Below, piece by piece: positions 13,899-25,239 of a stretch of 29,461 nt of DNA. Made by a program: the position numbers and the translations under genes. The stretch is from a virus (taxonomy: Duplodnaviria; Heunggongvirae; Uroviricota; Caudoviricetes): IMG/VR virus record IMGVR_UViG_2565956711_000012; one strand, written 5' to 3'. The first letter of the stretch is position 1. Every line of letters starts with the position of its first letter. The notes beneath the pieces were generated by a model. That model did no database searches and had not been told where the DNA came from. It saw nothing but the letters and a program-made list of their open reading frames with translations.

Positions 13899-13958
13899 GG
13901 TGTTGTCCGGTCACGTTGTTTACTTCCGGACAGTGTGGGGGGAAACGGGGACTCAGGT

Positions 13959-13974
13959 GGATTAACCGGCTTCA
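13959..13974 (-). promoter_or_regulatory. 16-mer TGAAGCCGGTTAATCC (copy 2, about 60 nt upstream of the I ATG)
   Basis: Exact repeat of the 16-mer upstream of the endolysin gene; here it lacks the hairpin partner and U-tract, so the shared element is not simply a terminator. Confidence 0.45.
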
Positions 13975-14042
13975 CTGTAAACGCGGCATGAAACCGCGTT
14001 TAAAACACGTTTAAAAACGCTGTGGCGCGTTTAACGATTTTT

Positions 14043-14061
14043 TGACGTGTCATCATGACGT
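14043..14061. repeat. direct repeat TGACGT-N7-TGACGT in the F-I intergenic region
   Basis: Plus strand TGACGTgtcatcaTGACGT; same hexamer pair with the same 13-bp phasing recurs at 12040-12058. Confidence 0.5.
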
Positions 14062-14107
14062 TATAATCGTTAATGCCGCCACGCGCGTTGTGGGATGGTT
14101 TTTATCT

Positions 14108-19552: not shown

Positions 19553-19858
19553 TTAATTTTTTTCCTTCAGTTCGTTTTCCAGCAACAGATCGCTGATACG
19601 TGTGGCCTGCCGGAGCATTCCGGAGAACTCCCGTATTTCGCCGCGCAGGTTGCTCATATCCAGTTGCAACTGGTGGAGTTCCTGCCGTGACGGCATCCCG
19701 TCGATGGCCTTTTCAAGTGCACTCATCCGGCTGTTAACTTTCTCCATCTCTTCCCGGCGGGCATAGGTTTTCACCAGCAGCAGGTGGATAATATTGATAC
19801 CGGACATCAGTCCGGCCCAGATGACAGCCCAGTTACTTCTTACGGTTTCCCATTCCAT
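19553..19858 (-). CDS. membrane-anchored coiled-coil protein (Mu gp25-like / DUF2730-like; lysis-associated)
   Basis: 101-aa ORF; N-terminal hydrophobic segment WAVIWAGLMSGINIIHLLLV followed by a heptad-rich coiled coil. Confidence 0.5.
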   Translation of the reverse strand: MEWETVRSNWAVIWAGLMSGINIIHLLLVKTYARREEMEKVNSRMSALEKAIDGMPSRQELHQLQLDMSNLRGEIREFSGMLRQATRISDLLLENELKEKN

Positions 19859-20065
19859 TTATGCCGTCTCCCTGAGTGTCTGGCAGTCAATGCAGGTCAC
19901 GGCATCCGGCATGGCCGCCAGTCGTTTAGGGTCAATTTCGTCACCACAGTCGTTGCAGTGACCTGGAGTATCAGGAGATTCTTTAACCCTGTTTAACAGG
20001 GCATTTAATGCCCGTTCACGGTCTGCCATCTCAAGGCCGCTGGCCTTGTCCAGTTCATCCGTCAT
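19859..20065 (-). CDS. TraR/DksA-family C4 zinc-finger protein
   Basis: 68-aa ORF with C-x2-C ... C-x2-C (CNDCGDEIDPKRLAAMPDAVTCIDCQ), the TraR/DksA signature. Confidence 0.75.
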   Translation of the reverse strand: MTDELDKASGLEMADRERALNALLNRVKESPDTPGHCNDCGDEIDPKRLAAMPDAVTCIDCQTLRETA

Positions 20066-21277: not shown

Positions 21278-21868
21278 TCAGCTCCGGGCTACCGAATAGC
21301 GGACACCGGAAATCTCACGACAGGCGTCAGCGAGGTTGTCCAGTCGGTTAAACCAGCCGTTGAGGAACTTGCCCTGTGAAGGATTTGATTTGATGATGTC
21401 GGCGTAATAGCGGGAACGACGCAGAAATAAACGGTTCAGCAGCCAGTCAGGGTCAGCACCTTCAACGGCTGCGCGGGTGTTTTTACCGGCGATACCATCA
21501 ACACTTTTGCCGGTGAAACCCGCAGCTTCCTGAAGCAACTGGACAGCCTTTTTGACGCCATGCTGGACGGCAGAGTCAAAGGCAAACAGGGCTATATCAT
21601 CCGGCCAAAACTGGCAATACGCGGGATACCAGTAGTCACGGAAGTAAATCTGTCCGGCCTGTTCAACCGTTAAATCACGAATACGCGTATCAGGCTTGCC
21701 ATCGCCATTAACGTCGGTCATGCCATCGGCAACACCGTCGCGTTTATCTGATATACCGAAGTTGGTTTCACCGCCACGGTCAGTGGGGTCATTGACATAT
21801 CCGCGTTCTGCGCTGAGCACGAAAGCAAGAGCATTGCGAAATGCGGGAGAATCGGGGGTGTTGTTCAT
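21278..21868 (-). CDS. endolysin, GH108-type N-acetylmuramidase with C-terminal peptidoglycan-binding region
   Basis: 196-aa ORF; N-terminal ERGYVNDPTDRGGETNFGIS matches the GH108 catalytic motif as I recall it; no signal peptide or SAR segment; AGGTG about 7 nt upstream of ATG. Confidence 0.75.
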   Translation of the reverse strand: MNNTPDSPAFRNALAFVLSAERGYVNDPTDRGGETNFGISDKRDGVADGMTDVNGDGKPDTRIRDLTVEQAGQIYFRDYWYPAYCQFWPDDIALFAFDSAVQHGVKKAVQLLQEAAGFTGKSVDGIAGKNTRAAVEGADPDWLLNRLFLRRSRYYADIIKSNPSQGKFLNGWFNRLDNLADACREISGVRYSVARS

Positions 21869-21919
21869 AAAACGGCACCTTTGGAAGTGGGTTAGTTTTC
21901 CCTTCCATCATGTGCCGGA

Positions 21920-21946
21920 CGAAAAAAAAGCCGGATTAACCGGCTT
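21920..21946 (-). terminator. intrinsic terminator ending the early (mor-moron) transcript
   Basis: Minus-strand RNA: AGCCGG-UUAAU-CCGGCU stem-loop followed by 8-9 U; located 30-50 nt after the moron stop. Confidence 0.65.
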
Positions 21947-21948
21947 CA
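21933..21948 (-). promoter_or_regulatory. 16-mer TGAAGCCGGTTAATCC (copy 1, about 64 nt upstream of the endolysin ATG)
   Basis: Identical 16-mer occurs again at 13959-13974, about 60 nt upstream of the I ATG; candidate late-activator site. Confidence 0.45.
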
Positions 21949-21978
21949 TTCAATGGATATAACTAGCGAATTCACTCA

Positions 21979-22488
21979 CTATGCTTTTCGTAAATCGCAG
22001 GAGTAAGTAACTGACTCCATAACTTTTCGAATAGTGGCTCGTAATTCCATTCCAGATGTAAAACCTGATGCTGAATAAGAGTCGTCTTCTCTTCTATTTG
22101 CCGTCGCTTTTGTAAAAATCTCAGCAACTTGATTGATTGAGTTTTCTGAGTCTTTCTTTCCCGTCACCCCCTCTACGAGTTTTACACATTGATTAACAGC
22201 AGCCAGTGATTCACCGTCAATATCTTTACCACTTGAAAACACCATTGCTGTAACTGCATCTGTACCTAATGCCCAAACGGTACTTACAGTGGAATCTTCA
22301 GTTGTTGCTGTATAAACCTGAACACCATCAACTATGGCTCCTTTTTTCCATTCTGTTTTTTTCAGGACACCCATTTTATCAAATTGAGAAATAAGCTTTT
22401 CATTACCTGTTAGTTCATCTTTATCGAAAAAATAGTGATACCCCCCAACTAAAATAACGGCCAGTATTAATGCATCAGTAAATTTCAT
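21979..22488 (-). CDS. moron: membrane-anchored or secreted protein of unknown function
   Basis: 169-aa ORF; N-terminal hydrophobic stretch (FTDALILAVILVGGYHYFF); clearly AT-rich compared with flanking DNA; GGAG about 7 nt upstream of ATG, inside the end of mor; followed by an intrinsic terminator. Confidence 0.6.
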   Translation of the reverse strand: MKFTDALILAVILVGGYHYFFDKDELTGNEKLISQFDKMGVLKKTEWKKGAIVDGVQVYTATTEDSTVSTVWALGTDAVTAMVFSSGKDIDGESLAAVNQCVKLVEGVTGKKDSENSINQVAEIFTKATANRREDDSYSASGFTSGMELRATIRKVMESVTYSCDLRKA

Positions 22489-22491
22489 ATG

Positions 22492-22902
22492 TTACTCCCT
22501 GCCAAATAAATCCAGTTGATGCTTGCGGTGCTCTAGTTTACGCATGCGTCTGATGGCTTTATACACCGTTTTATAGGTAACACGGTAACGCTCAACCAAC
22601 TCTGTGATGTTTCTGCCATTGAAATCACGCCAGATTTTCATATCACGAATCAATGACTCAAGAGTCTGGCCGCGTGGGAAATAAATCTGCATACCGCCAA
22701 TCTGACAGCTAATCGCGTAAACCAGCTCCAGAGAGATACGTGGGTCAACGCCATGCTTTGTCAGTTCGCCACGCAGCAGCGTATTCAGTTCTGTCAGCAG
22801 TGCAGGGAAACGCACTGTTTCCGCCGAACTGTCATCGTCCAGGTGCTCCAGAATGCTGTCATCCTGGATATCACCAAACAGATCATTCTGCTTTTCGCTC
22901 AT
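22492..22902 (-). CDS. mor: middle-operon regulator Mor (Mor/C family transcription activator)
   Basis: 136-aa ORF; DLFGD near the N-terminus, FPALLTELNTLLRGEL, IRDMKIWRDFNGRN and C-terminal HTH YKTVYKAIRRMRK match Mor as I recall it; sits right after the gemA-like gene as in Mu. Confidence 0.8.
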   Translation of the reverse strand: MSEKQNDLFGDIQDDSILEHLDDDSSAETVRFPALLTELNTLLRGELTKHGVDPRISLELVYAISCQIGGMQIYFPRGQTLESLIRDMKIWRDFNGRNITELVERYRVTYKTVYKAIRRMRKLEHRKHQLDLFGRE

Positions 22903-23426: not shown

Positions 23427-24114
23427 CGTTACTTCCCTCCGTCTGGCGGTCAATGCGCTCAATTTCTGCAATCAAAAGCGCACATGCTTTCACTAAATTT
23501 CGACGATAGTCTGATGGTTTGAAACTGTCATCATGCCAGTCAGCAGGCCAGTATTCTTCAGCCGCCAAAGGCTCTATGTAACTGATAGCCGCTGCGGCCA
23601 GCTCACCTTCAATATATGTGTCGTCCTGCTGTTTGGTGTATCCCTTAACCGATGTTTGCCGCTGGCGCTCGGCCAGAACATCAGATGTTGCTGGTGACAG
23701 TGAAAGCGATGGCGGTGCGGCTCCAATAGCTTTGCCCAGATCGTTGTTTTGCTTTTCCAGACATTCGATACGGTCTGCCTGCTGATTGATGTGATCATCC
23801 TGAGCGGTGTTAGTGCGTTCCTGTTCAGCTATGCGTTTTTGGGCCTTGACCAGTTCATCCGCCAGTGTCCATTCTGATTTTGACAGGACGTCTATTTCAT
23901 CCAGCAACAATTCCACGACTTCAAGAGTGAAACTGCGCTGGGTCTCATTGATAGTTTTAAGACGATTAATACTGGTATCGGGGCCAAATGGCGGCATTGC
24001 TTTACGTTTGCAGATATCGTCACGTATCTGCTGGATATTGATAATCGTATGCCTAGTCATTCGCTTAAACTCCATATTTAGTTGCCTGCGGGTGCACGAA
24101 GCCCCGGCAGGCAT
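23404..24114 (-). CDS. hypothetical early protein with central coiled coil (start uncertain; internal ATGs possible)
   Basis: 236-aa ORF between gam and the gemA-like gene; no recognisable motif. Confidence 0.4.
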   Translation of the reverse strand: MPAGASCTRRQLNMEFKRMTRHTIINIQQIRDDICKRKAMPPFGPDTSINRLKTINETQRSFTLEVVELLLDEIDVLSKSEWTLADELVKAQKRIAEQERTNTAQDDHINQQADRIECLEKQNNDLGKAIGAAPPSLSLSPATSDVLAERQRQTSVKGYTKQQDDTYIEGELAAAAISYIEPLAAEEYWPADWHDDSFKPSDYRRNLVKACALLIAEIERIDRQTEGSNDEPRIPD

Positions 24115-24149
24115 GCCGTATTAAAATTCTGAGAATCAAAGAAAGTTAA

Positions 24150-24677
24150 TTAATCAGTTACAGTTTGTTCAAATGGGATTATTTCAAAATCCTCAACATC
24201 TGATTTAATGGATATTCCTGCAATTCCCTTAACTTCATTCGGTGATGCAAGAATTGCCTCTTTGTTTATTTCCTCTTTATTGCGAAGAAATTTACCCAGA
24301 CTAAATTTTTTGAGTAACGCAATAACATCTTCAACTTTGCGAATAGTGACGCTGGGTGGTCGTTTACGCCAGCGAACCTCACCCGTTGTCAGGTTAGCAG
24401 TCTTGGTCTTACCGTCTTTGGTCAGTTCTGCACGGTTAGCTTCACACCATGTCTGAACGCCAGCCTGCAAACGTCCAAGCTCTTTTTTAAGCGCTTCAAT
24501 GCCGGGCGCAACATCATTTGTCAGGGCCGCTATTTTGTCATTCAGTTCCGTTTCACGGCGCAGAATGACACGGGTAATATCGCCAATCTTGCGGATGTCG
24601 CTGATTACGTCATCGCGGCATTGAGGAACGGCGACAGCAGCGGCTGATTTTGCGCGGGGCTTTTTGGGTGCTTTCAT
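24150..24677 (-). CDS. gam: host-nuclease inhibitor Gam (Ku-like DNA end-binding protein)
   Basis: Start at internal ATG (MKAPKKPRAKSAAAVAVPQCRDDVISDIRKIGDI...; cat at 24675-24677). Motifs KSAAA, RKIGD, TWCEANRAELT, VKTANLTTGEVRWR, IIPFEQ agree with Mu Gam as I recall it. Confidence 0.75.
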   Translation of the reverse strand: MKAPKKPRAKSAAAVAVPQCRDDVISDIRKIGDITRVILRRETELNDKIAALTNDVAPGIEALKKELGRLQAGVQTWCEANRAELTKDGKTKTANLTTGEVRWRKRPPSVTIRKVEDVIALLKKFSLGKFLRNKEEINKEAILASPNEVKGIAGISIKSDVEDFEIIPFEQTVTD

Positions 24678-24684
24678 ATAAACC

Positions 24685-24936
24685 TCAGTGTTTAATAATT
24701 TTACGGTTATCCAGATCAACTTTCTGTTTTGCAAATTCAGTGACCTGCTGGATAGCCATTGGAAAAATAGCTGACAGTCCTTCCGCAACCAGATACGAAA
24801 ATGAACCATCATCATTGGCGTTGTTAAGGTGAAAACTGATAGCGAGCTTTCCTGAGTTCTCACCGGTTTTAACCATTTCCCCGTTTTTAATTACCGCATC
24901 ATCCTCGAGAATAATGGTGATTACCTGTTTAGCCAT
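24685..24936 (-). CDS. small hypothetical early protein (AT-rich gene)
   Basis: 83-aa ORF immediately upstream of gam; lower GC than neighbours; no recognisable motif. Confidence 0.45.
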   Translation of the reverse strand: MAKQVITIILEDDAVIKNGEMVKTGENSGKLAISFHLNNANDDGSFSYLVAEGLSAIFPMAIQQVTEFAKQKVDLDNRKIIKH

Positions 24937-24948
24937 CTCACACCTCCA

Positions 24949-25239
24949 TTAATTACCTTTATAAATAATGTTAAATACCTGACTGCGAGACATTTCCATT
25001 TTTTCGGCGATAACCGATATGGTCAGTCCCTCCCTGTAAAGTTCACGACACAAATATGCGTCGTCTTCATTTCCCGCTCTGATGCGTAGCGAAAGGCCCT
25101 GCCTAATGGCGCAATTCTGCACTGACTGTTTAGAGCGCCCCAGTTGCAGTGCCAGACCGCTTACACTTACCTTTCCCGCGTTCTGTTCAAGAATGCGGAG
25201 TTCTTCACGTGACCATGCTCTCCCCGTACTCCAGCCCAT
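24949..25239 (-). CDS. small HTH DNA-binding protein (GcrA-like N-terminal motif)
   Basis: Start set at ATG giving MGWSTGRAWSREELRILEQ..., preceded by GGAGG 7 nt upstream; the ORF-track start at 25263 is a TTG. WSREEL...GLALQLGRSKQSVQNCAIRQGL resembles GcrA-type HTH; second HTH-like segment LTISVIAEKMEMSRSQVFNIIY. Confidence 0.45.
   Translation of the reverse strand: MGWSTGRAWSREELRILEQNAGKVSVSGLALQLGRSKQSVQNCAIRQGLSLRIRAGNEDDAYLCRELYREGLTISVIAEKMEMSRSQVFNIIYKGN

Follow-up and report, generated by a model that had tools for sequence, protein, structure and literature searches.

The 29,461-nucleotide stretch of DNA analysed here, referred to as the window (IMG/VR virus record IMGVR_UViG_2565956711_000012, Caudoviricetes), carries on its minus strand a 169-amino-acid (aa) open reading frame (ORF) with an ATG start at 21979–22488, hereafter gene X, between mor and a hairpin that ends the early operon of a Mu-like phage. 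Our comparisons make it very probable that X, a dispensable accessory gene without a detectable promoter of its own, fills a slot with four alternative states at the 3′ end of this operon, and that recombination between the invariant hairpin and the 3′ end of mor swaps the cargo of the slot. An earlier note on this DNA had described the locus as an AT-rich moron encoding a membrane-anchored or secreted protein; the ORF to which it pointed is real, lies on the minus strand just past the mor stop codon and has its Shine-Dalgarno (SD) sequence inside mor. Judged by comparative evidence, X is a gene and not a chance ORF, with homologues in seven genera and a ratio of nonsynonymous to synonymous substitution rates (dN/dS) of 0.15.

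The slot between mor and the hairpin has four states

A prophage of E. coli ECONIH5 matches the window at 100% identity, and this type of phage is present in only 5 of 5,426 complete E. coli genomes. Two of these five prophages carry X, and the other three carry a different gene, which encodes a 107-aa protein with three predicted transmembrane (TM) segments. When the window is compared with the EC09 prophage by blastn, an identity of 91.6–97.5% ends at 21964 and resumes at 22529, which delimits an exchangeable cassette made up of the final ~12 mor codons, X and the spacer; the sister E. coli prophages have a 361-bp segment with the 107-aa 3-TM gene instead.

A 24-nt version of the hairpin was used as a probe of IMG/VR and retrieved 44 contigs, in each of which the ORF between mor and the hairpin was classified. 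One contig was too short for classification, and every one of the 43 informative slots fell into one of four states, with none left unclassified: the X family (17 contigs), a 103–110-aa 3-TM family (phrog_36430, unknown function; 16 contigs), a ~172-aa family with a signal peptide (phrog_28288, unknown function; 5 contigs), and an empty slot as in Mu (5 contigs). Since Mu and 5 of the 43 contigs have nothing in the slot and a further 21 contigs have other families there, X is not a universal core gene of the mor–lysin interval. All three cargoes are found on backbones whose Mor and lysin are 96–100% identical to those of the window, and the exchange must therefore be recent. The cargo families also resemble each other in composition, with a mean GC content of 0.35–0.40 versus about 0.48 for mor, and in placement: cargoes start −4 to +12 nt from the mor stop codon (three families, 26 loci) and, in all three families, end 3–32 nt short of the hairpin.

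The ~172-aa cargo (226–744 in contig L012, and the slot ORFs of L025, L031, L038 and L046) has a signal peptide and a similar size in common with X, as well as a W-x-K-G motif near residues 41–50 and two invariant cysteines at about positions 98 and 167. Remote homology between the two families was considered and rejected, as the profile–profile probability given by hhalign is 0.1–0.3%.

Four of the IMG/VR contigs (L028, L033, L056 and L067) combine a Mu-type Mor, 87–99% identical to that of Mu, with the hairpin, a GH108 lysin and a gp18 homologue, and have no middle operon or C within the ~900 nt examined past the hairpin; they look like hybrids of Mu proper and the lineage of the window.

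The hairpin is a backbone terminator shared with Mu

The hairpin, GAAGCCGG-TTAAT-CCGGCTTT followed by a T-run, begins about 30 nt past the X stop codon; its stem counts 8 pairs, of which 5 are G-C. Its 15-nt core, GCCGGTTAATCCGGC, is identical to phage Mu sequence (AF083977, 9179–9200), where the element AAGCCGGTTAATCCGGCTTTTTTT forms the same hairpin and begins 6 nt after the mor stop codon. The Mu record annotates the terminator inside the Mor-activated middle promoter Pm (9163–9233). A Mor dimer binds Pm at a dyad-symmetry element, −51 to −36 (PMC4287176), and the hairpin sequence of the window matches this element. In all related loci fetched, from E. coli, Citrobacter, Trabulsiella (three contigs), Brenneria, Klebsiella, Yersinia and Serratia, the core is unchanged and the flanking sequence is divergent on both sides.

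The earlier note had correctly made X the last gene before the early terminator, since the hairpin and a run of eight T follow it, but had taken the hairpin for a clean terminator belonging to X. It is base for base the early terminator of Mu in Pm, and because it is present in Mu and when the slot is empty, it is a terminator of the backbone. The hairpins after X and after Mu mor share the core, the T-run and the orientation; in Mu, however, the hairpin directly follows mor and drives gp18-gp19-gp20-C, whereas in the window a gene of 510 bp separates it from mor, and a GH108 lysin is first in the downstream operon. The placement of X “where Mu carries C” was imprecise. The order of genes in Mu is mor, 6 nt, terminator/Pm, gp18, gp19, gp20, C, Plys and lys, so that C lies downstream of Pm, whereas the junction occupied by X lies upstream of the terminator and is empty in Mu; in the lineage of the window the hairpin directly precedes the lysin, and a gp18 homologue comes after it. 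A Pfam search found no match in X to the Mor/C DNA-binding domain (PF08765).

Further sites that resemble the hairpin core were seen. A near-copy, GCCGGTTAATCCACC, with two mismatches, lies at 13956–13970 (minus strand) in the gap at 13899–14107, which is 5′ of the protease/scaffold gene and corresponds in position to the Mu late promoter P_I, and the window holds 7 matches to the core with at most 3 mismatches, compared with 0.82 expected. A second, inverted copy of the core, CCGGATTAACCGG, is found in the Yersinia locus L018 at about 5560–5575, ~45 nt downstream of the first and before the lysin start. No second gene of the Mor/C family is present between the transposase and portal genes in the lineage of the window (locus L004, 1–12510). 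The near-copies in the window suggest that late promoters may be driven by Mor itself in a lineage that is without C. A −10 element or start site for the presumed Mor-dependent lysin promoter was sought at the spacing found in Mu, and no convincing hexamer was seen there.

X is probably coupled to mor and transcribed with the early operon

X is adjoined on its 5′ side by mor, which is preceded by gemA, and the early operon that includes X also holds homologues of kil and gam. The mor stop codon (TAA, 22494–22492) is followed by a 3-nt spacer, CAT, and then by the ATG of X at 22488; this arrangement, with the SD sequence inside mor, supports translational coupling to mor. A consensus scan, the only kind of promoter search made, detected no sigma70-like site 5′ of X on its strand within mor. 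Being placed between mor and the early terminator, X is the last cistron of the early operon, and the combination of an early polycistronic mRNA with coupling to mor implies that its product would be made early after infection or induction; the assignment of X as the last gene of this operon, translated through mor coupling and hence made early, is one that we infer with good support. A sigma70-like site upstream of gemA (Table 1) lies at the place equivalent to an annotated “semi-early promoter” in the Mu record (AF083977, 8151–8217), and could provide a second, possibly repressor-independent route to a gemA-mor-X transcript. In-frame readthrough from Mor into X was dropped as a candidate, as the frame relation varies among loci (the gap is 7 nt in L013 and 13 nt in L021).

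The AT-richness of X was confirmed. X has a GC content of 0.378 overall and 0.253 at third codon positions (GC3), compared with 0.525 ± 0.041 and 0.561 ± 0.081 for the 35 other ORFs in the window, which corresponds to z = −3.6 and −3.8, respectively, and sliding-window GC falls to 0.37–0.41 over about 21850–22600. Further AT-rich patches in the early region, at 23950–24400 and 24700–25000 (GC 0.39–0.40), lie over small accessory ORFs, such as an 83-aa ORF at 24685–24936 (GC 0.40). This AT-rich early region is only 80% identical to that of a sister prophage, with a small gap at 24937–24960.

The X family is a long-term resident of the slot

No match to X was found in Pfam, PHROG, NCBIfam or PADLOC, and a search of the family libraries with 22 members of the X family returned only phrog_38744 (unknown function), in keeping with the earlier statement that no known motif identifies its function. 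The family is rare: a word-indexed search of 5.8 billion proteins with X yielded only three clusters, and an exhaustive profile search of 1.84 billion representatives gave 17 hits, about 15 of them credible, with lengths of 160–192 aa. Named family members are confined to Enterobacterales (E. coli, Citrobacter, Trabulsiella, Klebsiella/Raoultella, Pantoea, Serratia and Yersinia), and all of them are labelled hypothetical. Neither blastn nor tblastn detected a copy of X among 50,697 deposited phage genomes. One isolated phage alone represents the lineage in this set, Klebsiella phage Kp4866-3, and it has the 3-TM cargo and not X. A first scan of genome contigs with Mor gave no loci, and a second scan, with an alignment, gave 5.

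The gene order mor, X, GH108 lysin is found in every context with enough flanking sequence, down to about 20–28% identity between X proteins, and X occupies the same slot in E. coli, Citrobacter, Trabulsiella, Klebsiella, Yersinia and Serratia. The family is therefore a long-term resident of the slot and not a one-off import. X has diverged faster than its surroundings: identity between the window and Trabulsiella is 44% for X versus 77–87% for neighbouring genes, and between the window and Klebsiella (L013) it is 36% versus 63–87%. Relative to the Citrobacter copy, dN/dS is 0.15 for X, 0.02 for Mor, 0.07 for the lysin and 0.23 for a neighbouring 135-aa membrane protein, and this value for X excludes positive selection at close range.

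The slot can be empty and no function of X has been identified, and X could thus be functionless filler, a decaying or selfish insert kept by linkage; this is highly improbable in view of the dN/dS of X, of an ORF that is intact and syntenic in seven genera down to about 20% identity, and of the conservation of the cysteine pair, Trp47 and the export signal.

X is predicted to be an exported protein with a periplasmic domain

The N-terminus of X, MKFTD followed by the hydrophobic segment ALILAVILVGGYHYFF, has a Kyte-Doolittle 19-residue maximum of 1.58 at residues 3–21, and together with the signal peptides of homologues this agrees with the hydrophobic N-terminus and the exported or membrane-anchored product of the earlier description. 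The acidic flank on the C-terminal side of the segment favours an N-in/C-out orientation. About half of the aligned family members have textbook cleavable signal peptides at the equivalent position, with cleavage sites such as ...SVYA/DNN, ...TSLA/DTA, ...IALA/DTR and ...MAFA/KDL, which marks the periplasm as the site of action. In X itself the N-terminus may be cleaved, possibly at a V-G-G/Y site, or may serve as an anchor. One homologue is called a lipoprotein in its UniRef entry; this assignment was rejected, as there is no lipobox cysteine.

Apart from the start methionine, only Trp47, Cys101 and Cys164 are invariant in an alignment of 22 family sequences. The two cysteines probably form a disulfide that stabilises the periplasmic domain, and the lack of any invariant polar residue makes binding likelier than catalysis. 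An AlphaFold2 (AF2) model, computed with a 14-sequence alignment, has a pLDDT of 86.1 and a pTM of 0.76 (84.5–86.1 pLDDT for the five models). In this model a TM or signal helix (residues 3–21) is followed by a helix (28–38), four strands (48–85), two long helices (90–109 and 114–128) and three strands (137–168). The predicted fold is a generic two-layer α/β sandwich to which no family can be assigned: Foldseek found nothing in the PDB at E ≤ 1e-3, with TM-scores ≤ 0.3, the best TM-score in BFVD was ≤ 0.46, and a sequence-profile search of the PDB gave nothing below E = 0.3. The folds listed as nearest are two-layer α/β binding folds (UTRA/chorismate-lyase-like and Mog1/PsbP/DcrB/LpqN-like), and the resemblance to DcrB is weak. 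Taken together, we consider it likely that the hydrophobic N-terminus directs X to Sec export and that the protein presents to the periplasm an acidic α/β domain of ~16 kDa, tethered or released, with a probable C101–C164 disulfide and with a role as a binder rather than an enzyme. There is good support for the inference that this domain works in the periplasm by binding.

What X may do in the infected cell

The periplasmic domain of X would bind an envelope component or a part of an incoming phage, and this binding would exclude superinfecting phages or protect the envelope of the infected cell during lytic growth; the other two cargoes, which are likewise exported or membrane proteins, would do the same job by other means. 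A function of X in early-phase superinfection exclusion or envelope protection is proposed tentatively, on indirect support. It is favoured by the use of a single slot for mutually exclusive, unrelated envelope proteins that turn over quickly between near-identical phages, and by the divergence of X, which is faster than that of its neighbours, a pattern usual for genes in phage–phage conflict. Early exported exclusion proteins are known from other phages, i.e., Sp and Imm of T4 and Llp of T5, and gp15 of HK97 is a bitopic exclusion protein encoded by a moron. Among transposable phages, gene 10 in the early operon of the Pseudomonas phages Ps56/Fc02 gives exclusion, apparently via blocked DNA injection (PMC9936078).

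Several observations weigh against this proposal. X has no homology or fold match to any exclusion protein (PADLOC, Pfam, PHROGs, NCBIfam), and expression confined to the repressed early operon, if that is the case, would leave a lysogen unprotected. Selection in close comparisons is purifying and not diversifying, as judged by dN/dS, and the sequence leaves both a cleaved and a retained N-terminus possible. Co-variation of X with a variable region of the tape-measure protein, of the kind expected from a mechanism like that of HK97 gp15, is absent among the five E. coli prophages; another X-carrying E. coli prophage has a different type of tape measure. In the tape-measure gene of the window (5366–7267, minus strand), megablast aligns the central part at 6170–7070 to none of the four sister E. 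coli prophages, the second carrier of X among them, and on this comparison that part is a separate mosaic patch.

A more specific and speculative version of the exclusion proposal, which we regard as unlikely, is that the mor/terminator junction may be a dedicated exclusion locus, at which three unrelated envelope proteins are swapped to decide which phages enter a lytically committed cell. X would then have a new fold and act in the periplasm to block DNA entry, e.g., by mimicking or sequestering a host injection factor, for which the resemblance to DcrB is a weak lead.

The company of kil, gam and gemA homologues in the early operon, the dispensability of X, as seen from empty slots, and a product predicted to be exported and binder-like rather than enzyme-like would also suit a host take-over effector, which would bind a periplasmic or inner-membrane machine (for division, peptidoglycan synthesis, envelope-stress sensing or transport) and condition the cell for transpositional replication. 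The semi-essential early region of Mu is a collection of host-modulating accessory genes, whose products are cytoplasmic. No target of X is indicated, however, and three unrelated cargo families with rapid turnover fit a conflict better than they fit a conserved host target; a take-over function therefore appears rather improbable.

An AT-rich extra gene for a predicted exported protein may also bring to mind a lysogenic-conversion moron with weak or conditional expression from the prophage and a benefit to the host through envelope modification, colonisation or resistance, and the sigma70-like site upstream of gemA could supply a repressor-independent gemA-mor-X mRNA for this purpose. Such a role is doubtful, however. 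The consensus scan revealed no promoter of X's own, the terminator is that of the backbone, no virulence or fitness domain was detected, and the coupling to mor is tight in all loci, so that constitutive expression of X would also produce Mor.

The position of X just upstream of the GH108 lysin and the lysis cluster, combined with its expected early expression and periplasmic location, raises the possibility of an accessory in lysis control, which would act either as an antiholin in the manner of T4 RI or as an inhibitor of muramidase released from lysed neighbours, and would thereby affect lysis timing or lysis from without. The terminator/operator between X and the lysis genes, however, places them in separate transcription units, and the same GH108 cassette occurs with X, with either of the alternative cargoes and with an empty slot, and we are sceptical of a role in lysis. 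Nor does X resemble an i-spanin, as the AF2 model has a globular α/β domain with 7 strands instead of a mostly coiled-coil periplasmic domain.

Comparison with accessory genes of other phages

X resembles lambdoid morons, in the sense of Hendrix and Juhala, in being an extra gene that separates features which adjoin each other in relatives and in having a base composition that deviates from the backbone, as do the homologues and the alternative cargoes. To this extent the designation as a moron stands, but it fails with respect to a promoter and a terminator of its own, since no promoter was found and the terminator is that of the backbone. X differs from lambdoid morons also by its location inside the early lytic operon and not in the late region, and by its long residence in one slot. 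HK97 gp15 and X have a similar inner-membrane/periplasmic topology, predicted in the case of X, but there is no similarity between them in sequence or fold. The T4 proteins Spackle (Sp) and Imm and the T5 protein Llp are, as is predicted of X, small exported or membrane proteins made early; they oppose superinfecting phage at the envelope, and Sp contains a disulfide; however, there is no homology to X, whose α/β domain is about 150 aa long, and none of them is among its structural matches.

Transposable phages of Pseudomonas have regions of genomic plasticity, i.e., fixed sites with alternative short accessory ORFs (PMC4378225). The slot described here is similar in being a fixed site for accessory ORFs, and one accessory gene in the early operon of the Pseudomonas phages, the exclusion gene 10 of Ps56/Fc02, offers a possible functional parallel. 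Gene 10, however, belongs to another lineage, follows ner and not mor, and encodes a protein unrelated to X, and the slot in the lineage of the window differs from the plasticity regions in having only three cargo families and an empty state.

Features of the locus

The features at and around X are collected in Table 1. In the lysis/late cluster, a TraR/DksA zinc-finger gene is located at 19859–20065 (minus strand) and is followed by a DUF2730 (releasin-like) gene at 19553–19858. An Rfam scan of the whole window found no RNA family.

Table 1 Coordinates of gene X, its parts and the neighbouring elements in the window
Feature	Position	Strand	Basis
X, 169-aa predicted exported protein	21979..22488	-	ORF list; stop codon 21979-21981
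Export signal of X, residues 1-21 (MKFTD-ALILAVILVGGYHYFF), signal anchor or short cleavable signal peptide	22426..22488	-	Hydropathy, AF2 helix 3-21, homologues
Predicted periplasmic alpha/beta domain of X, residues 22-169, about 16 kDa, isoelectric point 4.95, invariant W47/C101/C164	21982..22425	-	AF2, alignment
SD sequence AGGGAG of X, inside last mor codons	22495..22500	-	Read from sequence; 6 nt between SD and ATG
mor, 136 aa, gene coupled to X	22492..22902	-	Pfam Mor 3.6e-31; 64% identity to Mu Mor
Exchangeable cassette: last ~12 mor codons, X, spacer	21965..22528	-	blastn versus EC09 prophage
Backbone hairpin + T8, intrinsic early-operon terminator, same sequence in Mu Pm	21922..21947	-	Terminator scan, RNA fold
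Leader from hairpin to lysin ATG; presumed Mor-dependent promoter and 5′ untranslated region of lysis/late operon	21869..21921	-	Inferred from Mu Pm architecture
GH108 endolysin, first gene past slot	21278..21868	-	Pfam Glyco_hydro_108 3.3e-21, PG_binding_3 1.8e-16
sigma70-like site upstream of gemA, ATGACA-17-TATCGT, 9/12 matches	23503..23531	-	Promoter scan; Mu has semi-early promoter there

Significance

Variable accessory sites in Mu-like phages of Pseudomonas are already known, as are exported early exclusion proteins as a kind. Three elements of the present analysis appear to be undescribed in the libraries and literature searched: the X protein family, for which there is no Pfam or NCBIfam model and no PHROGs function; the four-state mor/terminator slot of enterobacterial Mu-like phages; and the invariant hairpin as the right-hand boundary of exchange. 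The slot has a clear anatomy and lends itself to testing, but nothing in it is mechanistically surprising yet. The analysis also aids annotation, because the genes in the slot are currently all labelled “hypothetical”.

Whatever the function of X, a sequence that serves as the Mu early terminator within Pm is invariant across genera and acts as a fixed recombination boundary for the exchange of accessory genes. If the proposed function is correct, the slot would provide three compact phage proteins that act on the envelope, with natural swap controls in near-identical backbones. It would then be convenient for work on the defence of infected cells by transposable phages, and possibly a source of new entry-blocking mechanisms in E. 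coli, Klebsiella and Yersinia.

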